Notes: generated from the letters alone by a model not told the origin. A stretch of DNA of 64,000 bases from Dehalococcoidia bacterium (GCA_965262725.1 OZ253555.1:1632001-1696000), one strand, 5' to 3'. Shown: positions 2,894-21,963, numbered from the stretch's first letter. Translations and numbers: made by a program.

Positions 2894-3678
2894 ATGATCC
2901 CCGGGCATTCATCGTCTCCTCGTTCACGATCATCAAGGGATCACTGATCGACGAGACTTATTCTGCCTTTCGTGACTGGGACTTATCAGCCTCGAAGTCG
3001 GAGAACTTGCGGCGCCTCATGGCAACGAACACTATCGGCGCGCGCAGCGCCCACTGGCTCCGGGATGTGTCGTTCGTGGTGAGCCGCCGCTTCGATCCTG
3101 AGAATGGAGACCGTCCGCTCGTCGAACTCGCCCAGCGTGGCTGCTCGCGGGAGATGTGGAATCCGCTGTTGCTCTGGCACATGACGCGGCACGAGTTTCT
3201 CGTGCGAGATTTCCTCGTGTCGTGGCTGCACCCACGCTACGTCGAAGGCGTCTACAAAATCCGTCCACACGATCTCCTGGCATATCTTGCAGGGTTGCGG
3301 TCAATCGACGGGATCCAGGTCGCGGAACACTGGACCGACTCAACAACGGCAAGGGTTGCGTCCGGACTACTCCGCATTGCGGAGGACTTCGGGCTACTCA
3401 CTGGCGGTTCAGTGAAAGAGTTCATTCCCTACCATCTGCCCGAGACGAGCTTCCTCTATCTGCTGCATGCCATCGCGGACGCGGAGCGGAACCCGCGGCG
3501 GGTCATTGACGCGCTCGCCTGGCGCATGTACTTGATGAGTGCCGAGGACGTAGAGCGTGAGCTATTCCGGCTCCACCAGTTCCGCCGGCTGCGCTTTGAA
3601 GTCGCAGGTTCTCTCGCAGAGCTCGATCTTCCTTGCCGATCGGCCGCCGAATTCGCGGAGACGATGACGTGTGACTGA
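2890..3678 (+). CDS. brxA: BREX protein BrxA (DUF1819-like)
   Basis: SSFTIIKGSLIDETY, LLWH...LVRDF, W.DST..RVASGLL..DFGLL; position before brxB. Confidence 0.85.
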   Translation: MNDPRAFIVSSFTIIKGSLIDETYSAFRDWDLSASKSENLRRLMATNTIGARSAHWLRDVSFVVSRRFDPENGDRPLVELAQRGCSREMWNPLLLWHMTRHEFLVRDFLVSWLHPRYVEGVYKIRPHDLLAYLAGLRSIDGIQVAEHWTDSTTARVASGLLRIAEDFGLLTGGSVKEFIPYHLPETSFLYLLHAIADAERNPRRVIDALAWRMYLMSAEDVERELFRLHQFRRLRFEVAGSLAELDLPCRSAAEFAETMTCD

Positions 3679-4246
3679 CGTACGCGAGCGCCTGCACGCA
3701 CTGGAGGCCATTCTCAGGGCCGCTGACCCACGGCCTACGATCAGCGCCTACCACGACATGCCGTACGCGATCTTTCGCTACGACCCGACAGACGAATTCC
3801 TTCTCCGTCAGGAAGTCACGCTGCTCCGCACTCGTCTAGAGCAGGCGGGCAAGCGCGTCACGGTAATCTCGCTCGCCGAGTGCATGCATTCCGCACTGGA
3901 AGCGGAGGGTCTCGGCAGGGATGCGCTCGCCGACGCAGAGCGGTCGGTCGGGCTGGAAGCAGCGATTGACACGGTGCATGAGGTACTGAGCCAGTACCAA
4001 CCGCTCGACCGCCTCGTCGCCGGCCGCATCCCTGCGGATGCCGATCCGCTGATGGACATTGTTCTCATCGTGCGGGCAGGAGCTCTTTTCCCCGCCTATC
4101 GGACGTCGTCTCTGCTGGAACAGCTCAAGGGCCAAGTGATGGTCCCGGCGGTACTCTTCTACCCTGGGATCCTCGATGGTTCTGCTGGTTTGAAGTTCAT
4201 GGCGGTGCTGGACGCGGAGCACAATTATCGGCCGCGGATCTTCTGA
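3671..4246 (+). CDS. brxB: BREX protein BrxB (DUF1788-like)
   Basis: PYAIFRYDP..EF, GALFP.YRTS.LL, VLFYPG, C-terminal NYRPRIF. Confidence 0.9.
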   Translation: MTDVRERLHALEAILRAADPRPTISAYHDMPYAIFRYDPTDEFLLRQEVTLLRTRLEQAGKRVTVISLAECMHSALEAEGLGRDALADAERSVGLEAAIDTVHEVLSQYQPLDRLVAGRIPADADPLMDIVLIVRAGALFPAYRTSSLLEQLKGQVMVPAVLFYPGILDGSAGLKFMAVLDAEHNYRPRIF

Positions 4247-4248
4247 GG

Positions 4249-7200
4249 ATGGCTGACATGACGACGAACGCGATCGGCGACCTGTTCGCTCAAGATGTTC
4301 ATCGGAACATCGAAGAGGTAATCAAGGTCGATCAGACCGACAAGCAGATCATTCGCGATGAGCTGAGCGAGTACGTCATTACTGACTCCATCCGCGAGCA
4401 CTTCACTGAGATCCTCGAGCGCTACTGGGAGACGCCTCAGAAACCGCACGAAGGGATCGGCGTCTGGGTTTCGGGCTTCTTCGGCTCCGGTAAGTCGAGC
4501 TTCGCGAAGTACCTCGGACTCGCGCTGGAGGACCGAAATGTGCTCGGTGAGGGCGCGGCCGAGCTGCTGGGCCGCCGCTCGACGGACGACAAACTGCGCG
4601 TCCTGCTCACGAACATCGCCGAGCATATTCCGACAGATGCCGTGATTTTTGATGTCTCGACCGATCGCGGTATTCGCACGGGCAATCAGACGATGACGGA
4701 GATCGTGTATCGCCAGCTGCTCGAGCGCCTAGGATACGCGCGTGATCTCGATCTCTCAGAGCTCGAGATCACGCTCGAGGGCGAGAATGGGCTCGATGAC
4801 TTTGAGGCGAAGTTCCAGGAGATTTTCGCGAAGGACTGGGATGTCGAGAAAGGCAAGGTAGCGCTCGCGGTTCAGCAGGCAAGCCGGGTGATGCACGAGC
4901 TCGACCCCTCGACGTACACCACGGTAGACAGTTGGCGGGAATCCGCGATGCGGCGCGCGGATGTCAGCGCGAACGCGCTTGCTGACCGTTGCGGGCAACT
5001 GATACAGCGTCGCCGGCCGGGCCGCAGTTTGGTCTTCGTTGTCGACGAGGTCGGACAGTTCGTCGCTCGGGACGTGCAGAAGATGCTCGACCTCCAGGGG
5101 GTCGTGCAGGCACTTGGGCGGGCGGGCCGGGGGAAGCTCTGGCTGATCGTGACCTCGCAGGAGAAGTTGAGCGAACTTGTCGGTGGGCTCGATGCTTCGC
5201 GCGTGGAGCTCGCGCGGCTGATGGACCGGTTCCCTCTGCAAGTGCACCTCGAGCCGTCGGACATCTCTGAAGTGACCAGTCGCCGCGTACTCGCGAAGAA
5301 CGCTGATGCCGAGCGGACGCTTCGCGAGTTGTTCGCTCAGCACCGTGGGAAGCTGAGCGAGAACACCCGTGTGTCAGCTGATGTGCGCCTGCCCGAGCTG
5401 AGCACTGAGTCCTTTAGCGATCTCTACCCGCTACTCCCGTACCAGATCGACTTGATCATCAGCGTGGTCTCTGGACTACGCACAGCAGGAGGCGCCAGCA
5501 AGCACGTGGGTGGCGCCAATCGCACGGTCATCAAGCTGGCGCAGCAGTTGCTCGTGCACCCGAATATCGACCTTGCTTCGCAGCCGGTCGGCGCGCTCGC
5601 GCGGATCGATCAGGTCTACGACCTGGTGTCGGCGAATATTCCCAGCGAGCTGCGGGGCAAGATTTCGGACATCGGTCGTGGCGTTGACCATCGGTTGTCT
5701 GAGCCGGTGGCAAAGGCGATCTGCCTTCTGCAGTACGTGCAGAGCGTTCACCGCACTCCAGAGAACATCGCTGCGACTCTCCACCCAGCGCTGGACGCGG
5801 ACTCCCGGCTGCCTGAGGTGTACGCGGCGCTTGAGGCGCTTGAGCGTGCACACATGGTGCGCCGCGGCGACGAGGGATACCGAATCCCCTCACCGGCCGA
5901 GGACGACTGGGAGCGACAGCGCGGCGGTTTCGCACCGCGCCCGGGGGATGTGCATCGGCTCCATGCTGAGGTCGTGACGGCGCTCTGGCAGCCGCAGCCG
6001 TCGCATCGATTGCTCGATGTCAGGCTCTTCAAGGCAGGGCTGAGCCTCGGCGGACGCGAACTCGTGCAGGGCGATATCACCTTCCACCTCACCCTCGCTG
6101 AAGGCGGGGGTGCGTACGACAGCGAGGTGGAGGCGGCGCGGACGCGTAGTCAGACCGAACCATCGACCGCGTTCTGGGTCGCCCCCCTGACCGAAGCCAT
6201 CGACCGCGAAACGGTTGAAATGTTCCGCTCGCGGGAGATTCTTTCCCGCAAGGAGCGGGATGCTCAGACAAAGGATGAGGCCCAGCTCGTTGCTGAGGAG
6301 CGCGTGCGAATGCGACGCCATCAGGATGAGCTGCGTCGCTTCTTCCGACAAGCGCTCGTCGGTGGCAGCATTTTCTTCCGTGGGAACGACCGTAGCCCCG
6401 GCGAAGCGGCTGAGGTCTTGAGCGCGGCCACGAACGTGCTGGCGCAGGCTCTTCCGCAGGTCTTCGACCGCTTCTCCGACGCCGCCGCGCGGGTGACTGC
6501 GAAGGATCTGGATTCGATCCTCACCAACGAGAATCTGAACGGTCTCGCACCCGTCTTCAGCACTTTGCACCTGGTCGGGGAGGAGGCAGGGAGGCCGGTC
6601 TTCAACACCGAGAGCGGTCCGCTCACGGAGATCCTCGGTCGCATTGAGAACCGCGCCAGCTACGGTGAAGTCGCCGACGGGCGCTACCTTGCGAATGAGC
6701 TGGCCAAGGAGCCGTACGGGTGGGAGTTCGACGCCGTCCGTTTGTTCGTTGCTGCGCTGCTGCGGGCCGGGAAGGTCACTATGACGAGCAAGGGGCAGAC
6801 CATCGAATCCGCCCTTTCGCTCGATGCCCGGACCACATTCAACAACAACAACCTGTTCCGCCAGGCCTCGGTCAGACCAAAGGTCGGTCTCGACTTCACG
6901 GAGATCGTCGATGCCTCCACGCACTTCAAGGAAGTGTTCGGCAACGACATCGCGGAGCTCGAGCAGAGCGCCGTCGCCCGGGCGATTCGGGAGGAGCTGC
7001 AGCGACACGAGCAGGAGTTGAGCGAAACTCACAGCCTCCTCGAGCGTCACGGGTTGCCGGGTGTTGCGATCCTGCGGGACGCGCTCGACCAGATGCGGGC
7101 GATTCGCCAGGGCCCTGAGGATCAAGCGATCCTTGCGTTCAGCGCCGCGTATCGCGAGCTGAAGGAGGCTATTAGACGGGCGGCAGAGCTAACGCAAACA

Positions 7201-7794
7201 CTGTCGAAGCCGCGGCTGCTCGACCTCCAACGTGCGGCAACGGCCCTCGGGCCTACGTGGCGATTTCTCCAGCGGGAGGTTGACCTGCCTGAGGACTGTC
7301 GCGAGCAGGCAGCGCTGCTTGAGGACTTAATGGGCAGAGAGACATTCTTTCGTGAGCTGCCCGCGATCGACCAGAGCACGCGTGTGCTTGAGTCCGAGTT
7401 CGAGGGACGGCACGCCGCCGCGGTCGAGGCACGCGTCGCCGCATACAGCAGCGCAATGGAGCAGCTTCGTGCAACGCCTGTCTGGGACGCGCTGCACCCC
7501 GACCAGCAGACACGTATCTCAGAGCCGCTGCTGGTCCGTTCGAGAAGAGATGGATGCGAGACCGAGACAGTTCCCATGCTGCGAGAGCAGACCGACGCGT
7601 GCTCGGCGCTACTCGGCCGGACGATCGAGGAAGTGCTTCGGCTCGTCGATGGGAACCGCGTCGTGCCGTTGCCTGCCTCAAGCTACTTTGCGGGAGGCAT
7701 CGAGACCGAGGAGCAACTGGATCAAGCGCTAGCCGGCCTGCGCGAGCGATGCCTCGAGTTGATCGGGGCGGGTAAGAAAGTGCTGGTTCAGTAG
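4249..7794 (+). CDS. brxC: BREX P-loop ATPase BrxC
   Basis: IEEVIKVDQ, EYVIT, GVWVSGFFGSGKS (Walker A), VVDEVGQF (Walker B), VTSQE, YPLLPYQ; 1181 aa. Confidence 0.95.
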   Translation: MADMTTNAIGDLFAQDVHRNIEEVIKVDQTDKQIIRDELSEYVITDSIREHFTEILERYWETPQKPHEGIGVWVSGFFGSGKSSFAKYLGLALEDRNVLGEGAAELLGRRSTDDKLRVLLTNIAEHIPTDAVIFDVSTDRGIRTGNQTMTEIVYRQLLERLGYARDLDLSELEITLEGENGLDDFEAKFQEIFAKDWDVEKGKVALAVQQASRVMHELDPSTYTTVDSWRESAMRRADVSANALADRCGQLIQRRRPGRSLVFVVDEVGQFVARDVQKMLDLQGVVQALGRAGRGKLWLIVTSQEKLSELVGGLDASRVELARLMDRFPLQVHLEPSDISEVTSRRVLAKNADAERTLRELFAQHRGKLSENTRVSADVRLPELSTESFSDLYPLLPYQIDLIISVVSGLRTAGGASKHVGGANRTVIKLAQQLLVHPNIDLASQPVGALARIDQVYDLVSANIPSELRGKISDIGRGVDHRLSEPVAKAICLLQYVQSVHRTPENIAATLHPALDADSRLPEVYAALEALERAHMVRRGDEGYRIPSPAEDDWERQRGGFAPRPGDVHRLHAEVVTALWQPQPSHRLLDVRLFKAGLSLGGRELVQGDITFHLTLAEGGGAYDSEVEAARTRSQTEPSTAFWVAPLTEAIDRETVEMFRSREILSRKERDAQTKDEAQLVAEERVRMRRHQDELRRFFRQALVGGSIFFRGNDRSPGEAAEVLSAATNVLAQALPQVFDRFSDAAARVTAKDLDSILTNENLNGLAPVFSTLHLVGEEAGRPVFNTESGPLTEILGRIENRASYGEVADGRYLANELAKEPYGWEFDAVRLFVAALLRAGKVTMTSKGQTIESALSLDARTTFNNNNLFRQASVRPKVGLDFTEIVDASTHFKEVFGNDIAELEQSAVARAIREELQRHEQELSETHSLLERHGLPGVAILRDALDQMRAIRQGPEDQAILAFSAAYRELKEAIRRAAELTQTLSKPRLLDLQRAATALGPTWRFLQREVDLPEDCREQAALLEDLMGRETFFRELPAIDQSTRVLESEFEGRHAAAVEARVAAYSSAMEQLRATPVWDALHPDQQTRISEPLLVRSRRDGCETETVPMLREQTDACSALLGRTIEEVLRLVDGNRVVPLPASSYFAGGIETEEQLDQALAGLRERCLELIGAGKKVLVQ

Positions 7795-7805
7795 GGCGGG
7801 GCAGC

Positions 7806-9719
7806 GTGGACAAGGACGTTCGGAATCGCATTCAGCGCGCGACGCAGGAGGTCCGTGCGCTGCTCGAGCGCGAGTTCGGCGAGCAGCTCGAGGGGCTCTT
7901 CGACATCCGAAGGAACGGCGTAATCGCCCCCGAAGCCGGTCCCCATCTCACGCCCAGGGAACGATTGTTGCGGGCGAAACTGATCGCGTCAGTCGAGCAC
8001 TTTCGCTCCGGTGGTGCTTCGCCGAGCGAGGCGGTCGCCCGCTATCAGCGCGACGCGGCATTCACAACGCTCAACCGCTTTGTCGCATTGAAGATGCTAG
8101 AGGCGAGGCAGCTGCTTCAAGAGTGTGTCTCGCGGGGAGACCAGTCCGCCGGCTTTCGGGAGTTCGTAGGTCTGGCGCCTAGCCTCGCGCAGATGCCCGA
8201 CCATGGCTACCGGCTCTACATCGAGAGCATCTTTGATGAGATTGGCCGAGAAGTTGGCGTGCTCTTCGACCGCCGCGATCCTGCGAGTCTGCTCTGGCCG
8301 CGCCGGAATACGCTACGGGAGCTGCTGGCAACGTTGAACGCCGCAGACCTAGCCGATGTCTGGGCGCAAGACGAGACGATCGGCTGGGTCTACCAGTTCT
8401 TCAACTCCGGTGACGAGCGCCGACAGATGCGCGACGAAAGCCAGGCGCCGCGGAACAGTCGCGAGCTGGCCGTCCGCAATCAGTTCTTCACGCCTCGCTA
8501 CGTGGTCCAGTTCCTTACCGACAACACGCTCGGACGCACTTGGTACCAGATGCGGTCAGGCGACACGGCCCTGGCGGACCGTTGGGAGTACTTCGTCGGC
8601 GACGAGGGGGTCGCGGTGCCCCGCGATAAGAAGGATCCCCGCGATATCAAGGTCCTCGATCCCGCATGTGGTTCGGGCCACTTCCTGCTATACGCGTTCG
8701 ATCTGCTGCTCGACATATACGAAGAGGCGTGGAGCGATCCTCAACAGCCGCGTAGCGAGGCCGGCACGACGCTGCGAGAGGATTACGAGGATGTGCCTTC
8801 GCTGCGTCGATCCCTCCCTGCGCTGATCGTCCAGCACAACCTCCACGGCGTAGAGATCGACCCGCGTGCGGCGCAGATCACGGCGTTGGCGCTCTGGTTG
8901 CGAGCGCAGCGCGCCTACAAAGAGTTCGGCGTCACCCCGACCCAGCGTATGCCGATCACTCAGACACACATCGTGATTGCCGAACCGATGCCAGGCGACC
9001 ATGGCATGGTCGACGACTTTGCGGCAGGCCTTGAGCCGGCCCTGTTGCGCGACCTCTTCCGGAAGATGGTTGGGGAGATGACTCTCGCAGGGGGACTTGG
9101 GTCGCTCCTCCAGGTAGAGCGCGCGATCGCAGCGGAGCTCCACCGCGCCCGGGAACAGTTCGTGAGGGAGCGCTCTGAGACGAAACCGAGCCTGCCCGGG
9201 TTGGAGCCCGAGCGACGACAAGGGGAGCTCGATCTATCCGGCGTCGACGACGATGCATTCTTTCATGAGGCAGAAACTCTCATCGTTGATGCGCTGCGTA
9301 GGTTCGCCGAGTCCACGACAGGCGGGGCAGGCGTTCGTCGACGCCTCTTCGCGGGTGACGCCGCACAGGGTGTCGCCCTCATCGAGCTGCTGCGGACGCG
9401 GTTTGACGTGGTGCTCATGAATCCGCCGTTCGGGGCTGGGAGCGTCATCGCGAAGCAGGCATTCGATAAGGCTTACCCGCGCACGAAGAACGATCTCTAT
9501 GCGGCCTTCGTCGAGCGCGGCATCCAACTGCTCCATGAGCGCGGAATGCTCGGCGCCATCACGTCCCGCACCGGGTTCTTCCTGTCAAGCTTCCAGAAGT
9601 GGCGCGAGGAGATCCTCCTGGAGGAGGCTCCCCCGACGGTGTTCGCGGACCTCGGCTACGGCGTGCTTGATGGCGCGATGGTCGAGGTCGCTGCGTATTG
9701 CCTCGAGGTCGCTGCATGA
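7806..9719 (+). CDS. pglX: PglX/BrxX N-terminal half: adenine methyltransferase subunit
   Basis: IGWVYQFF, QFFTPRYVV, LDPACGSGHFL (motif I), NPPF (motif IV), DLYAAF; ends just after the MTase core (VEVAAYCLE). Confidence 0.9.
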   Translation: MDKDVRNRIQRATQEVRALLEREFGEQLEGLFDIRRNGVIAPEAGPHLTPRERLLRAKLIASVEHFRSGGASPSEAVARYQRDAAFTTLNRFVALKMLEARQLLQECVSRGDQSAGFREFVGLAPSLAQMPDHGYRLYIESIFDEIGREVGVLFDRRDPASLLWPRRNTLRELLATLNAADLADVWAQDETIGWVYQFFNSGDERRQMRDESQAPRNSRELAVRNQFFTPRYVVQFLTDNTLGRTWYQMRSGDTALADRWEYFVGDEGVAVPRDKKDPRDIKVLDPACGSGHFLLYAFDLLLDIYEEAWSDPQQPRSEAGTTLREDYEDVPSLRRSLPALIVQHNLHGVEIDPRAAQITALALWLRAQRAYKEFGVTPTQRMPITQTHIVIAEPMPGDHGMVDDFAAGLEPALLRDLFRKMVGEMTLAGGLGSLLQVERAIAAELHRAREQFVRERSETKPSLPGLEPERRQGELDLSGVDDDAFFHEAETLIVDALRRFAESTTGGAGVRRRLFAGDAAQGVALIELLRTRFDVVLMNPPFGAGSVIAKQAFDKAYPRTKNDLYAAFVERGIQLLHERGMLGAITSRTGFFLSSFQKWREEILLEEAPPTVFADLGYGVLDGAMVEVAAYCLEVAA

Positions 9720-11881
9720 GGACCGTCTTTTTGCGCGCATTGGAGTCCGATGACAAAGCGTCGGCTCTGCTTGGAGCGATCCGCGGATCAGCCTCGGAGC
9801 GAGGTGGACGTTTCGATGTGCAGGCGGCCGCGTTCGGGCGCGTGCCGCGTTCACCATTCGCGTATTGGGTAAGCGATCGTCTGCGCACTGTCTTTGCCGA
9901 CCTCCCACCTTTCGAGGCGGACGGGCGTGTCGTGAAACAAGGCCTTGCGACTGCCGACGACTTCCGGTTCGTGCGCGCGTGGTGGGCTGTTCCGGTACGC
10001 GTCTTGGGTTTGCGGTGGTTCCCGTACACAAAAGGCGGGAGCTTCTCGCGTTTCTACGCCGACACCCATGTGCTCGTGAACTGGCACCGCAGTGGGGCTG
10101 AAGTGAAGGCGAACGTCAACGAACGCGGGCAGATTCGCTCGAACGTCTGGATGCTTCGGGATACCGCGGCCGAATACTTCTTTCGTCCAGGCATCACCTG
10201 GCCGCTCCGGGGGGTTCGCTACTCAGCTCAGGCCGTTCCCGCGGAATGCGTGTTCAGCGTCGCAGGTAAGATGGCCTTTGCTGATCCCGCTGATCTTCTT
10301 TGCGTGCTTGCACTATTCAATTCGACTGCCTTCGACAAGTTCATCGCGTTTTTTGCTGGGAAGATCGGTGGGGTGCAGTATGAGGTCGGCCTTATCAAGT
10401 ACGTGCCGATCCCGCTCCTGAGTGCCGATGATGAGCGCTGTCTAGCCACACTCGCCAGCCGCGGTTGGTCGATGAAACGCTCGCTGGACTCGGCTGTTGA
10501 AAGCTCGCACGCCTTCATAGCCCCCGCGCTTGTGCGGGTTGAGGGTGCCCCGCTGAATGCTCGCGCGGTAGCGTGGGCTGAGCACATTCACCTTGTAGAA
10601 GACGCGCTTGCGGGGATACAGGCGGAGATCGACGAGCGCTGCTTCGAGCTCTACGGCATTGATGAGGCTGATCGGCGCGCCATGACGGAAGGCTTCGACA
10701 CCTCGGGCGACGCTGCAGAGGATGATGACGCCGAGGTCGACAACTCAGCCGCCGAAGCCGAGGATGCGGATAGCGCCGAAGCCGACGCGACCGGTCTGAC
10801 CGCAGAGCTGGTGTCGTGGGCGGTGGGGGTGGCCTTCGGGCGCTTCGATGTGCGGCTCGCTACTGGCGAGCGGGCACTTCCGGCGGAGCCTGATCCGTTC
10901 GACCCGCTGCCGATCTGCTCACCCGGGATGCTCACTGGCGACGACGGCCTGCCGCTCCGCGCGGCGCCTGAGGGCTACCCACTCGCCTTTTCCGAGGATG
11001 GCGTCCTCGTCGACGACCCAGGCCACGCGCGCGATCTCACCGCCGCGGTACGCGCCATCTTCGACACGGTGTTCGGTGCCGACGCCGACGCCCGCTGGCG
11101 TGAGGCGGCCGAGCTCCTCGATCCAAAGGAGCGCAACCTGCGCAGCTGGCTCGCGAAGGCCTTCTTCGAGCATCACCTCAAGCGCTACTCGAAGAGCAGG
11201 CGGAAGGCGCCGATCATCTGGCAGCTCGCCACGCCGTCGGCGAGCTATTCGGTCTGGCTCTACGCGCACCGCCTGACAGCGGACAGCCTCTTCCACGTCC
11301 AGAACGACGTCGTCGCGCCGAAGCTTGCGCTCGAGGAGCGCCGACATACAGCGCTCGTGCAGGCCGCTGGTCCGAACCCGCCTGCGAGCCAGCGCCGAGA
11401 GATCGCCGAGGTGGAGACGTTTGTCGAGGAGTTGCGAGTCCTGCTCACTGAAGTGAGGCGGGTGGCGCCGCTCTGGCAGCCCGACCTCAACGACGGGGTC
11501 GTGCTCACGATGGCGCCGCTCTGGCGTCTCGTGACCCAACATCGGGCGTGGCAGCGGGAGCTGAAGTCGGCCTGGGATGCGCTCTGCGCCGGGAGGTACG
11601 ACTGGGCGCAGAGCGCAATGCACCTCTGGCCTGAGCGCGTCGTGCCGAAGTGCGCCGAGGATCGCAGCCTCGCGATCGCGCACGGCCTGGAGGAAGTCTT
11701 CTGGGTCGAGGATGCGACCGGGAAATGGGAACCGCGACATTCGCCAACGCGCTCGGTCGAGGAGCTCGTCAGTGAGCGGACGTCACCTGCCGTGAAGTCA
11801 GCGCTGCAGAGCCTGGTCGATGCACCCGCACTCGCTTCCAATGGGCGGGGGCGACGTTCTCGAGCGGGGTCGTCGACGTGA
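9716..11881 (+). CDS. PglX C-terminal half, copy 1 (target-recognition/specificity subunit)
   Basis: ATGA overlap with the MTase gene; PRSPFAYW, KQGLATADD, KGG.FSRFY, PGITW; PglX C-terminal motifs HLKRYSKSRRKAPIIWQL, DLNDGV, YDWA..AMHLWPERV..KC..DRSLAIAHG. Confidence 0.85.
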   Translation: MRTVFLRALESDDKASALLGAIRGSASERGGRFDVQAAAFGRVPRSPFAYWVSDRLRTVFADLPPFEADGRVVKQGLATADDFRFVRAWWAVPVRVLGLRWFPYTKGGSFSRFYADTHVLVNWHRSGAEVKANVNERGQIRSNVWMLRDTAAEYFFRPGITWPLRGVRYSAQAVPAECVFSVAGKMAFADPADLLCVLALFNSTAFDKFIAFFAGKIGGVQYEVGLIKYVPIPLLSADDERCLATLASRGWSMKRSLDSAVESSHAFIAPALVRVEGAPLNARAVAWAEHIHLVEDALAGIQAEIDERCFELYGIDEADRRAMTEGFDTSGDAAEDDDAEVDNSAAEAEDADSAEADATGLTAELVSWAVGVAFGRFDVRLATGERALPAEPDPFDPLPICSPGMLTGDDGLPLRAAPEGYPLAFSEDGVLVDDPGHARDLTAAVRAIFDTVFGADADARWREAAELLDPKERNLRSWLAKAFFEHHLKRYSKSRRKAPIIWQLATPSASYSVWLYAHRLTADSLFHVQNDVVAPKLALEERRHTALVQAAGPNPPASQRREIAEVETFVEELRVLLTEVRRVAPLWQPDLNDGVVLTMAPLWRLVTQHRAWQRELKSAWDALCAGRYDWAQSAMHLWPERVVPKCAEDRSLAIAHGLEEVFWVEDATGKWEPRHSPTRSVEELVSERTSPAVKSALQSLVDAPALASNGRGRRSRAGSST
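11146..11867 (+). repeat. About 720-bp near-identical direct repeat, copy 1 (copy 2 at 13317-14038)
   Basis: Constant 2171-bp offset with only scattered substitutions (e.g. PPASQ/PTASQ, AQSAM/AQLAM). Confidence 0.95.
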
Positions 11882-14061
11882 AGACCGTCTTCCTCCGCGT
11901 GCTAGAGGCGCGGGACAAGGGCCCGGCTCTGCTCGGAGCCATCCGCCGACCGGGAGCCTCCGGAGCAGGTCGGCGATTCGAGGTCTCCGTTGCGAGTTTT
12001 GGCGGGGTGCCTCGGTCTCCTCTTGCCTACTGGGTGAGTTCGAGGGTGCTCAGCCTGTTCGCGGACCTGCCACGCCTCCAAGCAAATGGGCGTGTCGCTG
12101 CATCGGGCGGCAAGACCCTCGACGACTTTAGGTGGATCCGCGGATCGTGGGAGATCGTTCCTGAGGCGGTGGACCGATGGCTTGGCTACGCCAAGGGCGG
12201 CACCTTCTCACCCTACTACGCTGACGTTCACCTCCTGCTTGACTGGCGCGATGACGCGAGGGCGCTGAAGACTTACTTGGTCAACTACCGCGAGAGTCGG
12301 GGGTGGTCACCTAACTGGACGGCCGAGTTGCATGGCAGCGACCATTATCGCCGGCCTGGACTGACCTGGCCCAGACGCACGCAGAGTGGGCTCGCGCTTC
12401 GGGCGATGCCGGCCGGGTGTGTGTTCGCGGACAAGGGTCCAGCTGCGTTCGTTGCGAACGACTGTGGCAGCCGCCTACTGGCGCTTCTGGCAGTTTCGAA
12501 CTCCATGGCTTTCAAGTCGCTTGTCGAGCTCCAAATGGCATTCGGGTCGTTTGAGGTTGGCGTCATCCAGCGCGCCCCTGTTCCCCTCACTGTTGGTGGC
12601 GATGAGAGCGGGCTCACACAACTGGCTTACCGTGCGTGGTCGTCGAAGCGCTCCTTGGACACAGTCGTCGAGACGTCGCACGCCTTCACGCTTCCTGCGC
12701 TACTCCAGTCCGAAGGCGGCTCGCTCGCTGGTCGCGCGGCAGCGCGGGCTGAGCACGTGCGCCGCATCGAAGACGAGCTTGCGGCCATCCAGGCGGAGAT
12801 CGACGAGCGCTGCTTCGAGCTCTATGGGATCAACGAGGAGGACCGCCGCGTCATCACCGAGGGCTTCGGCGGCTCGGGCGACGCCTCGGTAAGTGACGAC
12901 GGCGACGGCGACGGCGAATCAGACGATGCCGGGGCTGCGCAGGATGGGGTAGCTGAGGCGGTTGGCCTGACGGCGGAGTTGGCGGCGTGGGCGGTGGGTG
13001 TGGCATTCGGGCGCTTCGATGTGCGGCTCGCCACGGGGGAGCGAGCGCTCCCGGACGAGCCCGAGCCGTTCGACCCGCTACCGGTCTGCTCACCCGGGAT
13101 GCTTACCGGTGACGACGGCCTGCCGCTCACTGCGGCGCCCGAGGGCTACCCGCTCGCCCTCCCGGAGGATGGCATCTTCGTGGACGACCCCGGCCATACG
13201 CGGGATCACACCGCCGCAGTGCGAGCGGTCTTCGACGTCGTGTTCGGAGGCGACGCCGATGCGCGCTGGCGTGAGGCGGCGGAGCTCTTCGATCCGAAGG
13301 AGCGCAGCCTGCGCACCTGGCTCGCGAAGGCCTTCTTCGAGCATCACCTCAAGCGCTACTCGAAGAGCAGGCGGAAGGCGCCGATCATCTGGCAGCTCGC
13401 CACGCCGTCGGCGAGCTATTCGGTCTGGCTCTACGCGCACCGCCTGACAGCGGACAGCCTCTTCCACGTCCAGAACGACGTCGTCGCGCCGAAGCTTGCG
13501 CTCGAGGAGCGCCGACATACAGCGCTCGTGCAGGCCGCTGGTCCGAACCCGACTGCGAGCCAGCGCCGAGAGATCGCCGAGGTGGAGACGTTTGTCGAGG
13601 AGTTGCGAGTCCTGCTCACTGAAGTGAGGCGGGTGGCGCCGCTCTGGCAGCCCGACCTCAACGACGGGGTCGTGCTCACGATGGCGCCGCTCTGGCGTCT
13701 CGTGACCCAACATCGGGCGTGGCAGCGGGAGCTGAAGTCGGCCTGGGATGCGCTCTGCGCCGGGAGGTACGACTGGGCGCAGCTCGCAATGCACCTCTGG
13801 CCCGAGCGCGTCGTGCCGAAGTGCGCCGAGGACCGCAGCCTCGCGATCGCCCATGGTCTCGAGGAGGTCTTCTGGGTCGAGGACGCGAACGGGAAGTGGG
13901 AACCGCGACATTCGCCAACGCGCTCGGTGGAGGAGCTCGTCAGTGAGCGGACGTCACCTGCCGTGAAGTCAGCGCTGCAGAGCCTGGTCGATGCACCCGC
14001 ACTCGCTTCCAATGGGCGGGGGCGACGTTCTCGAGCGGCGTCGACACTGGGGGCGGATTAG
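11878..14061 (+). CDS. PglX C-terminal half, copy 2 (alternative specificity subunit)
   Basis: GTGA overlap with copy 1; collinear paralog with a divergent N-terminal TRD region and a near-identical C-terminus. Confidence 0.85.
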   Translation: MKTVFLRVLEARDKGPALLGAIRRPGASGAGRRFEVSVASFGGVPRSPLAYWVSSRVLSLFADLPRLQANGRVAASGGKTLDDFRWIRGSWEIVPEAVDRWLGYAKGGTFSPYYADVHLLLDWRDDARALKTYLVNYRESRGWSPNWTAELHGSDHYRRPGLTWPRRTQSGLALRAMPAGCVFADKGPAAFVANDCGSRLLALLAVSNSMAFKSLVELQMAFGSFEVGVIQRAPVPLTVGGDESGLTQLAYRAWSSKRSLDTVVETSHAFTLPALLQSEGGSLAGRAAARAEHVRRIEDELAAIQAEIDERCFELYGINEEDRRVITEGFGGSGDASVSDDGDGDGESDDAGAAQDGVAEAVGLTAELAAWAVGVAFGRFDVRLATGERALPDEPEPFDPLPVCSPGMLTGDDGLPLTAAPEGYPLALPEDGIFVDDPGHTRDHTAAVRAVFDVVFGGDADARWREAAELFDPKERSLRTWLAKAFFEHHLKRYSKSRRKAPIIWQLATPSASYSVWLYAHRLTADSLFHVQNDVVAPKLALEERRHTALVQAAGPNPTASQRREIAEVETFVEELRVLLTEVRRVAPLWQPDLNDGVVLTMAPLWRLVTQHRAWQRELKSAWDALCAGRYDWAQLAMHLWPERVVPKCAEDRSLAIAHGLEEVFWVEDANGKWEPRHSPTRSVEELVSERTSPAVKSALQSLVDAPALASNGRGRRSRAASTLGAD
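13317..14038 (+). repeat. About 720-bp near-identical direct repeat, copy 2
   Basis: Matches 11146-11867. Confidence 0.95.
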
Positions 14062-14062
14062 C

Positions 14063-16600
14063 TTGCACGCACTCCACGACTACCTCTGTCAGCAGCTCGA
14101 GGATCTGCTCCGCAAGCGTTCGGTCGTCGTCTTCTACGACCCTCGCCGGGAGTTCGCACCCTTCTTCCGTGAGTTGAGCGACGGTGGCTCAGAGGCTGGG
14201 CAGCTCCGGCACGTTGTCATCGGTTCACTGCCGGCAGCACTCGTGGAGTACAACGGCTCGTTCTACCAACTTCGCGCTGAGGTTGAGGAGCTGGTGGGGG
14301 AGGATCGACCGGCGCCGCTCATGCTCTACGTCCCTGGCGTCAATCGAGACCCGAAGAACTCCGTACTCATGGAACTCGAGCTCGGCGGCAGCCGTTACGA
14401 GCAGCCGCTCAACCGTCTCGCGCTCAACGTTCTCCGCAAGAGCTTCTCCGACGGACAGATCGATGAACTGCTCCGCCTGGGAAGCACGACTTACGAGGAC
14501 ATCGTGTCGTTCCTCCAGCAGGCTGAGGAAGGCGAACCCGCGTCGGCGCTCCGCGGGCTCTTTGGAGGCCTCCGTAGCGAGCCGCTCATCGCCGAGTGGC
14601 TCGCAAGTGTCGAGCGCGACGATGCGATTTCCGAAAGGGATGCGACTTCTGAGCTGTTCAAGTTGCTCGAGACCCGCGTGGGCCTGGCCCTCACCGAGGC
14701 GTCATCGCTCAGCGAAGCGCGGGAGCGGGCGGCACGGTACGTGCTCATTGGTGAGTTCCGGGCCGACCTCTCTGGAGAGCCTCCCCCGTCGATCTCGCTC
14801 GTCCCAGTCCCCCAGTCGAAGGAGCACCAGGCGCGCATCGCCGAGATAGCTCGCCTGCTTCGCCGTGACCGGCCAGACCGGTATGCCGCACTGGCAGACA
14901 GGGTGGAGCGAGAGCTGGGACTTCAGGATGCGCCCATCGCGCCCTCTCAGCTCGGTGCCGTGGACACGTTCGGATTCGAGGAGAGACGTCTGCTTGAGCG
15001 CGTCGGTGAGCTCATCGCGACCAAGGCATATGGCGAAGCCCTGGACGTGATCTCGGGCCGTCGACGCAGCTTCTGGGTGGACCGCGATGTGCCACGCCAG
15101 GCGCAGTGGGAGGCCAGCCGCCTCATGGCGACCTTGGGCACTGCAATTGCTGCGGCTCGTGTAGAGCTTCCGAAGTTTGGGGTCGATGCGACGGCGTGGG
15201 TCGAGGCGTATGCCGCCGACCGCGGCTGGCATGAGATCGACCGGCTGCACCGTGCGCTTGAGACCTGGGTCGCGAAGATGAGCGAGGAGCCCGAGAGCGA
15301 ACAGGCGTTGGCGGTCATCCGTCGCGAGCAAGAGGACCTGCTTCAGCTGATGGCGGAAGGATTCGGGAAGGCCTTCCAAGCAGCTGGCTGGACGGTTCCG
15401 AACATCCTTCACCAGACGGGCATCTATCCGCAGGTCGTGGAGTCGCTGCCGGGCCCGGTCGCTTACTTCTTCGTCGATGCAATGCGTTTCGAGATGGGCG
15501 CCGAGCTGGCGCAGCAGCTCCAGGGCGCAAGCGACCTCAGGCTGCGGCCCGCCATCGCGGCGCTCCCGTCGATTACGCCGGTCGGCATGGCCGCGCTCCT
15601 GCCGGGCGCATCGGCGAGCTTTTCGGTCGTGGAGGGGCGTGGGCGAATCGCCTCCCGCATGAACGGCACCGCAATGCCAGGCATCACTGAGCGTATGAGG
15701 TACTTGAAGGCGCGGGTTGTTGGTCTCCGCGAGCTGACGCTGGACGACGTTCTGCGTCGCCGGATGCCCGAGCTTCGTCGGAGCGTCGATTCCGCGCCAC
15801 TGGTGATCGTTCGTTCGGACGAGATCGACGCGCTCGGGGAGAACGTGCAGGACTCCACTGCGCGAGCCGCCATGGAGAGTGTAATCGGCAACATTGCTCG
15901 GGCCGTACGAAAGCTGGCCGCCGCCGGCATCGAGCGGTTCGTGATCACGGCCGATCACGGGCACCAGTTCGCCATCCGCAAAGAAGAAGATATGCGTACG
16001 GACAATCCGGGCGGCGACGCTCTCGAGGTTCACCGCCGTTGTTGGATCGGGCGTGGTGGAACCACGCCGCCGGGCACCGTCCGGGTGACCGGAGCGGAGC
16101 TCGGCTATGACACCGACCTCGAGTTCGTCTTCCCGACCGGGCTCGGTGTCTTCAAGGCTGGCGGCGGCCTCAGCTTCCATCACGGCGGGTTCAGCCTCCA
16201 AGAACTGGTGATCCCAGTCGTCAGCCTCCGCATTGCAGCAGAACCGGTGAAGCCGCAAGGCGGCCAGCGGGTTCGTCTCGAAGACGTCCCTGCGCGCATC
16301 ACGAATCGGATGTTCGTTGTCCAGGTCGTTTCAAGCGCCGACCTCTTCGATACGGAGCCGCTGTCGCTCCGGGTCGTCTTGCTCTCGGGAGACGAACAGG
16401 TCGGCCAAGCAGGCATGGCGACTGGGGCGGAACTCGATAACGTAAAGAGCGAACTGCAGCTCGCGCCCGGGACGGCTGCCAGCGTGGGTATGATGCTCAT
16501 GCGCGATGACATCACTTCGCTGCGCATCCTAGTCCAAGACGCCGTCACCGATGCAGTGCTCGAGCAGTCGGAATCCATCCCGGTGCAATTAGGGATATAG
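14063..16600 (+). CDS. pglZ: BREX alkaline-phosphatase-fold protein PglZ
   Basis: VVVFYDP, FVDAMRFEMG, LPSITPVGMAALLP, ITADHGH, FHHGGFSLQELVIP; probable TTG start at 14063. Confidence 0.95.
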   Translation: MHALHDYLCQQLEDLLRKRSVVVFYDPRREFAPFFRELSDGGSEAGQLRHVVIGSLPAALVEYNGSFYQLRAEVEELVGEDRPAPLMLYVPGVNRDPKNSVLMELELGGSRYEQPLNRLALNVLRKSFSDGQIDELLRLGSTTYEDIVSFLQQAEEGEPASALRGLFGGLRSEPLIAEWLASVERDDAISERDATSELFKLLETRVGLALTEASSLSEARERAARYVLIGEFRADLSGEPPPSISLVPVPQSKEHQARIAEIARLLRRDRPDRYAALADRVERELGLQDAPIAPSQLGAVDTFGFEERRLLERVGELIATKAYGEALDVISGRRRSFWVDRDVPRQAQWEASRLMATLGTAIAAARVELPKFGVDATAWVEAYAADRGWHEIDRLHRALETWVAKMSEEPESEQALAVIRREQEDLLQLMAEGFGKAFQAAGWTVPNILHQTGIYPQVVESLPGPVAYFFVDAMRFEMGAELAQQLQGASDLRLRPAIAALPSITPVGMAALLPGASASFSVVEGRGRIASRMNGTAMPGITERMRYLKARVVGLRELTLDDVLRRRMPELRRSVDSAPLVIVRSDEIDALGENVQDSTARAAMESVIGNIARAVRKLAAAGIERFVITADHGHQFAIRKEEDMRTDNPGGDALEVHRRCWIGRGGTTPPGTVRVTGAELGYDTDLEFVFPTGLGVFKAGGGLSFHHGGFSLQELVIPVVSLRIAAEPVKPQGGQRVRLEDVPARITNRMFVVQVVSSADLFDTEPLSLRVVLLSGDEQVGQAGMATGAELDNVKSELQLAPGTAASVGMMLMRDDITSLRILVQDAVTDAVLEQSESIPVQLGI

Positions 16601-16603
16601 GCC

Positions 16604-18646
16604 ATGATCAACGTGCAGGCTCCCGCCCGCGACGCGCTAGACGACAAGGTCAACCGCATCTTTGCCGGAAAGGCCGTGAGAAAGGACCTCGTCCGCAAGG
16701 TCAAGGTCGGTGCCAACGTTCCCGTCTTTGTTCTGGAGTACCTGCTCGGGAAGTACTGCGCTTCCTCGGACGAGATGGCAATCCAGATGGGGTTGCAGGT
16801 CGTCAACAACACTCTCGCCGAGAACTACATCAGGCCCGACGAAGCGCAGCGTGCTCAGAGCAAGGTAAAGGAGCTGGGGCGCCACACGTTCATCGATAAG
16901 GTGAAAGTGCGCTTGACGGACTCCGAGTACTGGGCTGAGGTGACGAATTTCGGTCACCGCTTTGTCCACATCCCTGACCACTACGTTCGTGATTTCGATC
17001 GCCTGCTCACCGGTGGTATCTGGGCGCAGATCGACATGCGGTTCGAGTATGACGAGGAATCGCGGGGCAAGAACCCGTTCTGGATTGAGAAGCTCACGCC
17101 GATCCAGCTCGCTACATTCGATCTTGATGAGTACCGCGGGCTGCGTGCCGAGTTCACCACTGACGAGTGGCTGGACCTCATGGTCCGGAGCATGGGCTAC
17201 GAGCCGTCGATCATGGATCGGAGACTGAAGCTCCTCTTCCTGCTCCGCCTCATCCCACTGTGCGAACGCAACTACAACTTGGTCGAGCTTGGTCCCAGGG
17301 GAACCGGTAAGAGTTACGCGATTCAGGAGTTCTCACCCTACGCGGCTCTGCTGACGGGGCCGACGACGGTCGCCAATCTCTTTGGCCATATGAGCGGCAG
17401 GCAGAAGGGTATGGTCATGATCTGGGACGTCGTCGGCTTCGACGAGGTCGGGGATCTCCAGAAGATGCCGAAGGAAGTGATCACCACGCTCAAGACCTAC
17501 TGTGAGTCTGGTCAGTTCCAGCGTGGGCAAGAGGCGATGGCGGGCTACGCCAGTATCGCCATGTTCGGGAACACTCAGCAACCGGTAGACGTGATGGTCC
17601 AGACCGGGCACCTCTTCGCACCGCTGCCCGAGGTGATCCGAGATGACATGGCATTCATCGACCGCATGCACTTCTACCTCCCGGGGTGGGAAGTGCCAAA
17701 GATGCGCAACGAGCACTTCACGGACCATTACGGATTCGTTGTCGACTACCTCGCGGAGGCGCTTCGCGAGCTGCGCAAGCTGAACTACACTGAGACTCTC
17801 GATCACGCTTTCTCGCTCGGCTCCCACTTGAACGCTCGCGACCGCAAGGCGGTTCGTCATACCGTCGCCGGTCTCGTGAAGATCCTGCATCCCAACGGCG
17901 ACGTGTCGAAGGACGACATGGAGGAGATCGCTGCGCTGGCGCTCGAAGGTCGTCGGCGAGTCAAGGAACAGCTCAAGAAGATGGGTTCCTTCGAATATCA
18001 CCAGACTTCGTTCAGCTACATCGACAACGAGTCCGGTGAAGAACACTTCGTTGGTGTACCCGAGCAAGGTGGTCGCGATCTCATCTCCCCGGACCCGCTC
18101 GCACCGGGCACGATCTACGCGGCTTCCGTGACAAACGACGGAACAGTCGGTCTGTATCGGGTGGAAGTCACAACGTCCAACGGAACGGGGAAGCTGCGCC
18201 CGGCGGGAGCACTGCGGGGGCTCGTGAGAGAGTCCGTCCAGCGTGCGTTCGGCTACCTGCAGTCGAATCAGACTTCGTTTGGCGTGGCGAGCGCACTCGA
18301 CGGTTCAGACCTCCACGTCGAAGTCGTTGATCTGCTGGGCAATCGCGCCGATGCAGAGATCGGGGTCGCGTTCTTCATCGCCGCCTACTCAATCTTGCGG
18401 CGGAGCGCCCCACTCCCGGCGCTACTCGTTCTCGGTGATCTCAGCATCCAGGGGAACATCAAGCCGGTGACGTCGCTCGTTGAACCATTGCGACTCGCGA
18501 TGGACAACGGTGCGAAGCGCGCACTGATCCCGATCGAGAATAAGCGCCACTTCTTCGACGTTCCTGCGGACATCCTCGAGATGGTAGATCCGGTTTTCTA
18601 CGGCGATATGCGAACGGCTGCCTTCAAGGCCTTGGACCTGGGCTGA
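16604..18646 (+). CDS. brxL: BREX Lon-like ATPase BrxL
   Basis: ANVPVFVLEYLLGKYC, ELGPRGTGKS, FDEV, AFIDRMH.YLPGWE, C-terminal Lon-like domain (LGDLSIQG). Confidence 0.95.
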   Translation: MINVQAPARDALDDKVNRIFAGKAVRKDLVRKVKVGANVPVFVLEYLLGKYCASSDEMAIQMGLQVVNNTLAENYIRPDEAQRAQSKVKELGRHTFIDKVKVRLTDSEYWAEVTNFGHRFVHIPDHYVRDFDRLLTGGIWAQIDMRFEYDEESRGKNPFWIEKLTPIQLATFDLDEYRGLRAEFTTDEWLDLMVRSMGYEPSIMDRRLKLLFLLRLIPLCERNYNLVELGPRGTGKSYAIQEFSPYAALLTGPTTVANLFGHMSGRQKGMVMIWDVVGFDEVGDLQKMPKEVITTLKTYCESGQFQRGQEAMAGYASIAMFGNTQQPVDVMVQTGHLFAPLPEVIRDDMAFIDRMHFYLPGWEVPKMRNEHFTDHYGFVVDYLAEALRELRKLNYTETLDHAFSLGSHLNARDRKAVRHTVAGLVKILHPNGDVSKDDMEEIAALALEGRRRVKEQLKKMGSFEYHQTSFSYIDNESGEEHFVGVPEQGGRDLISPDPLAPGTIYAASVTNDGTVGLYRVEVTTSNGTGKLRPAGALRGLVRESVQRAFGYLQSNQTSFGVASALDGSDLHVEVVDLLGNRADAEIGVAFFIAAYSILRRSAPLPALLVLGDLSIQGNIKPVTSLVEPLRLAMDNGAKRALIPIENKRHFFDVPADILEMVDPVFYGDMRTAAFKALDLG

Positions 18647-18744
18647 TCGTCGCAGAGTCGCTTCGTGACAGGAGTCGGCTGCATAGCAAGCGCTTCGGGC
18701 CTTCCACTGCTAGGCCTCAGTTGCGAGGGTGCGAACAATTGACC

Positions 18745-18758
18745 AGAACGCACGTTCG
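18745..18758. promoter_or_regulatory. Possible LexA/SOS box (GAAC-N4-GTTC) next to a TTGACC -35-like hexamer
   Basis: AGAACGCACGTTCG matches the Gram-positive/Chloroflexi SOS consensus; no clear target gene. Confidence 0.35.
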
Positions 18759-18939
18759 TCTGACCGGACCCCGTGTTCCACCACCGCGCATGAGCACCAG
18801 TTCGGGACACTGGGGGTCAAGAATCCCATCCCGAGCGTGTCCTCTCCGCCGTTGGTCGGCTCCCTCGAAGTAGTCTGGATCGTTCGTAGGCTCGGATGCT
18901 GTTGCGAGGGGGACGCGCTCCGTGGCGCCGCAGCCACGC

Positions 18940-19206
18940 CTACGGCAGCCGCCGGAAGGAGAGATCTGCGACTACTCCAAAGTGGTCCGAGAGGTTTCTC
19001 TTCTCATCGACATTGCTGATCACGTCCGCTCCCTCGACCGCCAGTTCCTCACTCAGCGCAATGTGGTCGATGCTCCTGCGCCCCTCGACGGCAAGCGACG
19101 AGGTCGCGATCGTCAGGCCCGGCGTGAAGGCCCGGCCCAGTGCCGACCTGACCTCGGCGGGTGCACGGCCGCCCGCCCCGACGACCTGGTTGAAGTCCCC
19201 CATCAC
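18940..19206 (-). pseudogene. Endonuclease/exonuclease/phosphatase (EEP) C-terminal fragment
   Basis: GDFN, IDHI, SDH motifs; N-terminus replaced by the IS110 fragment. Confidence 0.75.
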
Positions 19207-19208
19207 TA

Positions 19209-19403
19209 TCAGTCGTTCCGCAGTGCCCCGTCCGGGGAGCCGAAGGACTCCGCGCGAGCGAGGAGCGCCTCGATGTCGGCCTCGTCGTTCGCGACGGCGC
19301 CGGCGAACAGCGGCGAGCCTGCCGCGTCCAGCACGTCGGCGAAGTGCTCTGTCTTACCGATGTCGAGGCCGATCCACACGGTCGTTTCGTCGGGCGTACC
19401 CAC
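19209..19403 (-). pseudogene. IS110-family recombinase N-terminal fragment
   Basis: WIGLDIGKTEHFA.VLD..G......VAND, the RuvC-like DEDD N-terminus; stops after 64 aa; GGAAGGAG RBS upstream. Confidence 0.85.
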
Positions 19404-19439
19404 TGCAACTCCTTCCGGGTTTCCCCCTCACTCAGTAGG

Positions 19440-21909: not shown

Positions 21910-21963
21910 GTGCACCTCCTTCAATGTCGCCGCGTTGGCCGCGAGGCGCTGATGCTAGCAGCC

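Follow-up and report, generated by a model that had tools for sequence, protein, structure and literature searches.

A type 1 BREX operon with PglX divided between a methyltransferase gene and two tandem genes for stand-alone C-terminal halves

PglX (or BrxX), the methyltransferase (MTase) of type 1 bacteriophage exclusion (BREX) systems, is one chain in the solved structures from Salmonella D23580 (8C45, 8Q56) and E. coli HS (9EWZ, 8ZEK), and it is in such single-chain PglX that earlier work has examined and engineered the specificity of BREX. A 2025 review describes the target recognition domain (TRD) as integral to the BREX MTase, and according to Went et al. the C-terminal domain of Salmonella PglX alone could not be expressed. 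In Brevibacterium casei, Milman et al. (2023) describe PglX as two coding sequences, with the N terminus and middle part in one and the C terminus in the next. BREX-1 loci of L. rhamnosus and L. paracasei are described as having more than one TRD-bearing pglX segment, with an inverted second copy, a recombinase and programmed inversions. In this work, we analyzed a stretch of 64,000 nucleotides from a Dehalococcoidia bacterium (GCA_965262725.1, OZ253555.1:1632001-1696000; the window), in which a type 1 BREX operon contains pglX as three genes, one for an N-terminal MTase half (M) and two for stand-alone C-terminal halves (S1 and S2). Whereas the B. casei break follows the variable region, the break here precedes the TRD. 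In contrast to the inverting loci, the copies are complete, stand in direct tandem and have coupled starts of their own, and a Pfam search with the 19 open reading frames (ORFs) of 596-30584 revealed no recombinase domain. The part of Salmonella PglX that resisted separate expression thus has a natural stand-alone counterpart. We assign a probability of about 0.55 to the reading that PglX is here a two-subunit enzyme, that both S proteins are used and that the system recognizes two motifs.

The three genes and their junctions are as follows.

7806-9719, + strand: M, PglX N-terminal half (helical bundle and N6-adenine MTase core), 637 amino acids; assigned from motifs, Pfam, NF033452 and PADLOC
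9716-9719, + strand: ATGA overlap, M stop and S1 start
9716-11881, + strand: S1, stand-alone PglX C-terminal half, 721 amino acids from ATG; assigned from NF033452, PDLC02532, PDB profile and Foldseek
11878-11881, + strand: GTGA overlap, S1 stop and S2 start
11878-14061, + strand: S2, second stand-alone PglX C-terminal half with another TRD, 727 amino acids; assigned from NF033452, PDLC02532, family alignment and docking model

An original prediction, made from the sequence alone, had read this region as an MTase gene followed by two collinear PglX C-terminal halves with coupled overlaps and homologous starts, and all of these elements were found again. M contains motif I (LDPACGSG) and motif IV (MNPPFG), both invariant in 42 M homologs, and so carries the motif I (xPxCGSG) and motif IV (NPPF/Y) of gamma-class N6-adenine MTases. 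It matches the Pfam families Eco57I, MmeI_Mtase and N6_Mtase (PF20473 MmeI_Mtase on residues 280-388, 39 bits versus a cut-off of 27). S1 and S2, which start with MRTVFLR and (GTG)KTVFLR, match no Pfam family at E ≤ 0.01. On the NCBIfam PglX profile NF033452 (1210 positions) the pieces are collinear, with M covering positions 4-609 (399.2 bits), S1 653-1209 (272.1 bits) and S2 654-1209 (238.8 bits). No single ORF spans the profile, and none has the size (about 1200 amino acids) and score (at least 500 bits) that NCBIfam sets for a single-polypeptide PglX. Pipelines expecting one PglX may hence score such loci as incomplete or as lacking pglX.

Two 'PglX' models of PADLOC-DB 2.0 fit the halves end to end. 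M 1-636 covers positions 1-639 of PDLC02526 (640 positions, 1018 bits), and residues 3-719 of both S proteins fall on PDLC02532 (682 positions; S1 on 2-680, 810 bits; S2 on 2-678, 673 bits), while PDLC02527 (1332 positions) stands for fused PglX of this clade. All three models were generated automatically from sequence and lack a description; the halves were thus already known to the database as clusters. RefSeq names M 'DNA methyltransferase' and S 'hypothetical protein', and the latter is also what S homologs are called where they are named (Mesorhizobium, Methylocella, Microbacterium, Acidobacteriota).

The split is found far beyond the window. We labelled the ORFs of the best 80 of 431 related metagenome loci against the BREX proteins of the window: M and S are adjacent but in different frames in 53, separated by 0.7-5.3 kilobases in 14 and fused in 4, 8 loci do not cover the junction and 1 is of another kind. 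As the set contains near-duplicates (L071/L073, L074/L075, L040/L041, L051/L052), these are not 80 independent events. Four-nucleotide overlaps make up 47 of the 53 adjacent junctions (29 ATGA, 16 GTGA, 2 TTGA); one is a 1-nucleotide overlap and five are of other types. In the adjacent-split relatives M ends in ..AAYCLE.. and S begins with M[KR]TVFLR, and the window shows the same termini joined by the same RTGA overlap. In a smaller scan with a single-protein query, which gave 19 loci, M and S occupy different frames, with about 75 nucleotides or less between them, in L005, L006, L008 and L009; the cover of L007 is of S only.

A word-index search with S1, which is blind to proteins above 1262 amino acids, found 4162 relatives; 117 of the best 120 clusters at 90% identity are stand-alone proteins with the same N terminus (7 carry a C-terminal extension, the other 110 have the usual length). 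An exhaustive HMMER search without length limit gave, among the best 150 representatives at 50% identity, 75 stand-alone S (57 full, 14 C-terminally extended, 4 truncated), 34 fused M+S of 1041-1793 amino acids, 13 partial M+S, 20 N-terminally truncated fragments and 8 others. A subset of stand-alone S proteins of 850-916 amino acids (P0125, P0126, P0128, P0129, P0136, P0140, P0143, P0145, P0155 and P0165) carries a C-terminal extension of about 150-190 residues, and these proteins have three matched stretches.

Fused relatives run straight through the break point (for example L032, ..AAYCLEKGLEARGMRTTFLR..). In a FastTree phylogeny built from 106 S regions, the two forms are intermixed, with 22 changes between split and fused, at least 13 of them forced by well-supported branches, although this count is rough because the tree uses full-length S including the recombining TRD. 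The PglX break appears to be easy to open and close in evolution, and we liken this to the EcoKI hsdM-hsdS fusion experiment (PMC3510504). Twelve loci on viral contigs are all whole BREX clusters (4 split, 7 fused, L116 broken inside S), and no orphan phage-borne S gene was found among them. Decayed S genes, in two or three frames, also exist (L008 10001-11724, L096 2058-4850, L076 4835-7222).

The collinearity of fused relatives across the break, and the interleaving of both forms on the tree, might suggest that M and S are still fused into one PglX polypeptide by programmed frameshifting at the overlap. However, kilobases of other genes part M and S in 14 of the 80 loci, and also on the complete plasmid NC_019941 of Thioflavicoccus mobilis 8321, a cultured isolate. 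In its RefSeq annotation, brxB, brxC and a 'DNA methyltransferase' are followed by an ATP-binding protein and a DUF2290 protein, then by the 'hypothetical protein' that corresponds to S, a toxin–antitoxin pair, pglZ and brxL. With M and S kilobases apart, fusion by read-through or frameshift is impossible there. Furthermore, every S has its own start codon at the same residue, no slippery heptamer was seen before the M stop of the window, and no nucleotide motif besides RTGA is conserved across the junctions. We hence consider frameshift fusion hardly credible.

The separated arrangements also exclude sequencing error as a general explanation. The system could, however, have decayed, with pglX broken by a frameshift and partially duplicated and BREX left inactive. 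Halobacterium salinarum 91-R6 is reported to have a disrupted pglX and no A methylation, and the failure of either half alone to reach the 500-bit NCBIfam cut-off would be in agreement with decay. Against this, the same break and overlap recur in dozens of diverged loci (M proteins 57-73% identical), all nine genes of the operon are open, S1 and S2 show purifying selection, and each half has its own full-length PADLOC model. Decay is thus very improbable, and the four-nucleotide overlap that 47 of the 53 adjacent-split relatives share at one and the same residue argues, as the original prediction had done from the window alone, that the split PglX is not a frameshift accident.

The break can be placed on the known structures. 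A profile built from 47 S proteins matched 8C45 (E = 2.8e-39) and 9EWZ (E = 8.4e-36), with S 36-381 on residues 645-986 and S 427-611 on residues 1015-1213 of Salmonella PglX, and S 38-381 on residues 646-966 of E. coli BrxX. In all, S is homologous to PglX 645-1213 and BrxX 646-1193, which comprise the TRD, the spacer helices and the C-terminal domain. In a Foldseek search, the AlphaFold model of S1 retrieved six chains of PglX/BrxX with E ≤ 6e-11; no other structure scored below 0.1. As S 36-38 aligns with PglX/BrxX 645-646, S residue 1 corresponds to about residue 608-610. For E. coli BrxX, the published description gives two 'jaws' linked by hinge loops 638-675. By the alignments, the break does not fall in the hinge but precedes it by about 30-50 residues and lies within the terminal part of the MTase fold. 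S comprises the last MTase strand and helix, the putative docking element, and then hinge, TRD, spacer helices and C-terminal domain. The original prediction was therefore right that the first gene holds the MTase motifs, but not that it stops at the end of the MTase core, since the residues between break and hinge belong to the MTase domain and are found at the start of S. Compared with canonical PglX/BrxX, the operon context, the gene order and the domain series from N-terminal bundle to C-terminal domain are the same, with homology in both profile and fold; what is one chain there is here two polypeptides with an RTGA overlap, the second of them present twice.

Complex modelling, which the original prediction had proposed as a check, was carried out for full-length M with S2 1-330. 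Three runs gave values of 0.78, 0.79 and 0.78 for the interaction prediction score from aligned errors (ipSAE), while the best of three controls gave 0.00. Of 80 solved complexes 58 pass the ipSAE mark in use, as do 2 of 110 mismatched pairs; this calibration is rough because own alignments were used. At least 91% of the contacts were common to the runs, and the predicted local distance difference test (pLDDT) value of the partner was at least 83. In the model, S2 3-9 (TVFLRVL) lies beside M 609-617, that is, the N-terminal strand of S2 is placed on the last M sheet; S2 helix 14-22 packs against two M stretches (230-236 and 261-267), and S2 46-51 contacts M 589-594. M and S would thus dock by strand complementation, with the N-terminal S strand added to the edge of the M sheet. 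S1 has the identical residue at 17 of the 27 interface positions of S2, most of which show the family consensus; both S proteins should hence use the same M site. What the complex model shows is that the halves can fit as in PglX, not binding in the cell. Taken with the conservation of the split, we regard it as very probable that PglX is here a non-covalent two-subunit enzyme.

S1 and S2 are 70% identical overall, but this identity is distributed unevenly. By protein segment it amounts to 33/59 (residues 1-60), 79/197 (61-263), 151/210 (264-473) and 243/251 (474-727), or about 40% for the TRD and 97% for the final 250 residues. The four divergent segments named in the original prediction are all present in the S1–S2 alignment. 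At the nucleotide level, identity in a MAFFT alignment is 41-64% over 9716-10570 and 67-87% over 10573-11112, there is one mismatch in 11146-11611, and identity is then 90-99% up to 11867. This profile was taken from MAFFT, as an ungapped repeat search gave a 300-nucleotide direct family only. The segments concerned are the following.

9896-10495, + strand: S1 TRD-coding segment (residues 61-260), the most divergent part
12058-12666, + strand: S2 TRD-coding segment (residues 61-263)
11146-11867, + strand: direct repeat copy 1, 3' part of S1; 15 mismatches, offset 2171
13317-14038, + strand: direct repeat copy 2, 3' part of S2

Within its coding 3' part, S1 also contains a 40-nucleotide palindrome (13-base-pair stem, 14-nucleotide loop) at 11578-11617, with a counterpart at 13749-13788 in S2; there, the stem is disrupted by two neighboring substitutions (S1 coordinates 11612-11613), through which the Ser of AQSAMH becomes the Leu of AQLAMH.

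Each TRD has its closest relatives among S proteins of other loci. The S1 TRD is nearest to those of P0006, P0007, P0008 and P0013 (64-67%) and the S2 TRD to those of P0141 (68%), L050 (61%) and L049 (60.5%), in neither case to the other S of the window. In their last 250 residues, however, S1 and S2 are each other's nearest relatives. The two TRDs thus come from different lineages, and TRDs of foreign lineage on nearly identical tails point to TRD exchange by recombination, followed or accompanied by homogenization of the constant part. In the family alignment of 47 sequences, 56 columns are invariant, and both proteins conform to every one of them. The ratio of nonsynonymous to synonymous substitution rates (dN/dS) is 0.24, 0.28 and 0.19 in the three segments with computable dS, the last being the recently diverged 3' part. 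Both S genes are hence intact and under purifying selection.

In the E. coli BrxX preprint by Drobiazko et al., the TRD is described to read base pairs 1-4 via K681, D684, R751, Q784 and N823, and an MTase-domain loop to read base pair 6. In an approximate mapping by hand, S1 and S2 differ at all four positions aligned to these base readers, namely K681 (S1 Q75, S2 S76), D684 (S1 A78, S2 K79), Q784 (S1 V182, S2 D185) and N823 (S1 Q221, S2 S224), and these positions lie in three of the four divergent segments. S1 and S2 may thus confer two different specificities, distinguished by the 5' part of the motif.

Two S genes are also found in L029, L034, L039, L054 and L065, i.e., in 5 of the 67 split loci, all of them among the 53 adjacent ones. 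The original prediction had called for a search for loci with the same split point and variable numbers of S genes; the split point is the same in dozens of diverged loci, and the number of S genes varies. The S–S junctions of L039 (TTGA) and L054 (GTGA) are built like that of the window. In the complete pairs of L029, L034 and L039 and the covered part of L054, with the L065 pair left out of the alignment, the copies diverge most at about residues 60-240. In the L034 pair, identity reaches 91-96% for roughly the last 240 aligned residues (80-96% for the last 360) and is 40-43% at about residues 60-180; here an extra full-length S (23-2284) lies upstream of brxB, in addition to the S following M, so S copies are not always in tandem. 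In L029, a stop-to-stop frame of 156 codons (6560-7027) between the two S genes has a TTGA overlap with the second S, and its last approximately 90 residues correspond to the M 3' end (M 544-634, 75% identical). This M fragment looks like the scar of a cassette imported with its upstream flank.

The tandem itself could be an assembly artifact, in which two strain variants of one S were falsely joined. The single-contig assembly is probably metagenome-derived, and short-read contigs break inside the repeat. However, contigs of two studies bridge both junctions without any difference: M/S1 in X1 record 2 (8450-10648) and X5 record 9 (9462-10353), and the S tail with the S2 start in X1 record 5 and X5 record 12 (both 11838-12819). 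X1 may be the source sample of the window itself. X5 has no cover over most of 6500-9400, and two other sets, X6 and X8, contain diverged pieces only; the bridging contigs are what we use as evidence. No contig was seen that joins M to S2, and independent loci have S genes in tandem whose junctions are built in the same manner. As far as contigs can tell, an artifact is therefore extremely improbable. On the separated loci, the conserved break and the bridging contigs we rejected ribosomal frameshifting, decay and assembly artifact.

Alternatively, PglX might be split but work as M+S1 only, S2 being a leftover or spare of TRD-cassette replacement that can be lost again via the 3' repeats. The mosaic identity and the foreign-lineage TRDs point to recombination, the second S of L029 follows an M fragment as if imported with its flank, and the direct repeat of 720 nucleotides with its 15 mismatches is a substrate for deletion. 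On the other hand, S2 is full length, retains all invariant family residues and shows the low dN/dS of 0.19 even in the 3' part; its junction repeats the coupled overlap of M and S1, a design shared with L039 and L054; its place is within the operon, with pglZ and brxL downstream; and its docking residues are conserved, with S2 predicted to dock on M. We consider a spare S2 possible but unlikely.

That both S genes are used simultaneously is the reading we favor, if only by a moderate degree of belief, and several points weigh against it or against the wider picture. Loci with two S genes are few, and the doubled S, as a minority state, could be transient. In L. paracasei Zhang, according to the published account, BREX methylation was lost upon inactivation of pglX but not of a second MTase gene; extra MTase copies can thus be silent, which is also a precedent for a spare S2. 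The purine-rich stretch upstream of the start is weaker for S2, with its GTG, than for S1. The mapping of base readers rests on an alignment of about 20% identity. The S1 model alone has a mean pLDDT of 72.4 with residues 1-230 mostly below 60, and we drew no conclusion on the TRD fold from this low-confidence part. Finally, because the halves belong to a known fold, the score of the complex may reflect the model's memory of single-chain PglX/BrxX.

In this reading, M would supply the N-terminal helical bundle, S-adenosylmethionine binding and catalysis, whereas S would contribute everything from the last MTase β-strand and helix onward, including hinge, TRD, spacer helices and C-terminal domain. 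Translational coupling at the ATGA overlap would yield S, and its TVFLR strand would then join the edge of the M sheet, with helix 14-22 packing beside it. Most likely, S1 and S2 would both be translated and compete for one site on M. The resulting two PglX holoenzymes could let BREX mark and survey two non-palindromic motifs. Because in E. coli BrxX the TRD reads base pairs 1-4 and the MTase loop base pair 6, these motifs should differ at the 5' side and share the methylated A and the 3' end. The anatomy, the conserved split, the TRD mosaic and the intact state of both S genes are shown here and the M–S docking is a model, while we infer expression of both S genes, two motifs and a benefit in defense. 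The overall interpretation of the original prediction is supported in part: the M+S split is conserved and the two S proteins differ, and the use of both is plausible.

The likeness to Type I restriction–modification systems (HsdM+HsdS) is one of layout only, with separate, coupled M and S genes (ATGA, GTGA). In some bacteria, several hsdS genes share one hsdM. S1 and S2 have no HsdS (Methylase_S) match and one TRD each instead of two, and the M–S docking is predicted to proceed by strand complementation at the MTase sheet. HsdR is absent, restriction here depending on BrxC, PglZ and BrxL; neither a helicase nor an HsdR family was found among the 19 ORFs run against Pfam. Type IIL/IIG MmeI-like enzymes share the MmeI-type MTase domain with M; however, M has no Pfam nuclease family, and its N terminus aligns to the N-terminal bundle of PglX.

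The architecture is real and widespread, while a BREX acting on two motifs is what we infer from it. BREX-1 itself, the PADLOC half models and the B. casei split were known; of the pre-TRD split, the stand-alone S and a BREX with several S genes we found no account in the literature, with the supplements of PMC12839542 and PMC9881135, which may list such cases, outside the search; the main text of the 2026 BREX survey in Nucleic Acids Research (PMC12839542) uses 'split', 'fission', 'two ORFs' and 'separate gene' 0 times. We may tentatively speculate, with odds slightly below even, that a large type 1 BREX clade has converted PglX to a Type I-like holoenzyme whose specificity subunit is detachable, portable and stackable and docks by strand complementation. 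If so, the TRD-bearing gene would be a cassette that moves between BREX loci by recombination, and stacked S genes, here and in at least five further loci, would give one BREX machine several target motifs at once. Such a system would be harder for phages to escape by loss of sites or acquired methylation. The natural, widespread M+S form shows that the two 'jaws' can be separate proteins and would offer a ready-made specificity swap by exchange of one gene. The two-S loci thereby pose a testable question, namely whether one BREX complex polices two motifs.

The M–S break may furthermore open a gap in the operon for the insertion of PARIS-like and OLD-like defense genes. In relatives, this gap holds other defense genes, always oriented like the operon.

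L047, 6531-8402: OLD-family protein with AAA_15 and TOPRIM (ATPase-TOPRIM)
L009, 8017-9998: PARIS-like AAA_21 ATPase and DUF4435 protein
L069, 5030-9745: ParA-like protein, protein of no assigned family, AAA_21 ATPase and DUF4276
L060, 2654-5511: ParA-like protein and protein of no assigned family
L104, 6133-8986: ATPase and DUF2290

For L088, which is grouped with L060, the search covered the non-ParA protein only, and this had no family match.

In the window, the type 1 BREX operon is complete (brxE-like, brxA, brxB, brxC, pglX as three genes, pglZ, brxL). Its nine closely spaced genes on the + strand span 2102-18646 and contain no internal stops. Besides the three pglX genes these are the following.

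2102-2893, + strand: brxE-like, first gene of the operon; NCBIfam NF033447 BrxE family 132.5 bits versus a cut-off of 40, same place in related loci
2890-3678, + strand: brxA; Pfam PF08849 BrxA 61.9 bits
3671-4246, + strand: brxB; Pfam PF08747 BrxB 58.6 bits
4249-7794, + strand: brxC (P-loop ATPase); Pfam DUF6079 42.6 bits versus a cut-off of 23
14063-16600, + strand: pglZ; Pfam PF08665 PglZ 71.4 bits versus a cut-off of 25
16604-18646, + strand: brxL; Pfam BrxL_ATPase 411 bits, BrxL_N, Lon_C

By gene content, this is BREX type 1: brxA, brxB, brxC and brxL cluster with pglX in the order A-B-C-X-Z-L, and the Pfam families BrxA, BrxB, DUF6079, BrxL_ATPase, BrxL_N and Lon_C all score above their cut-offs. 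BrxC is 50-67% identical to BrxC of related loci, and its matches to the BrxC helical and winged helix-turn-helix domains are below the cut-offs. The same holds for the NCBIfam PglZ models on pglZ, the best being BREX-6 PglZ with 266 bits versus 400. S2 is spaced by -4 nucleotides from S1 and by +1 from pglZ, which probably starts at TTG 14063, 1 nucleotide past the S2 stop; homologs of pglZ align only from residue 25 of a longer ORF that opens at ATG 13991. This ATG sits in the repeated S tail, and its twin at 11820 opens an ORF of 103 amino acids. Gene callers may hence add a false 24-codon pglZ extension over S2.

A scan of 1500-19500 gave 11 terminator-like sites versus 9.6 expected from shuffling and 1 promoter-like site versus 1.8 expected, i.e., no signal, and no tRNAs were found in 1-30000. 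The genome (3.67 Mb, single contig, completeness 91.55%, contamination 2.97%) contains one M, two S and no further copies. Searched with S1, all 60 other related genomes lack the system; G020 alone gave matches, a pair of short segments (query 415-501, E = 5.8e-13 and 8.4e-10). The BREX locus is hence a horizontally acquired island. Past brxL, on the - strand, a gene for an 8xMP membrane protein (19810-20388) lies beside one for a ThsB-TIR-like protein (20812-21447), followed by genes for a receiver, TCAD9 and kinase-like protein (21964-23430), a HATPase_c protein (23403-24410) and an SMC/AAA_21-like ATPase (24410-26392). Together with BREX, these defense-like genes look like a defense island; the G+C content is 0.57-0.61 in 19810-26392, versus 0.61-0.69 in the BREX genes.

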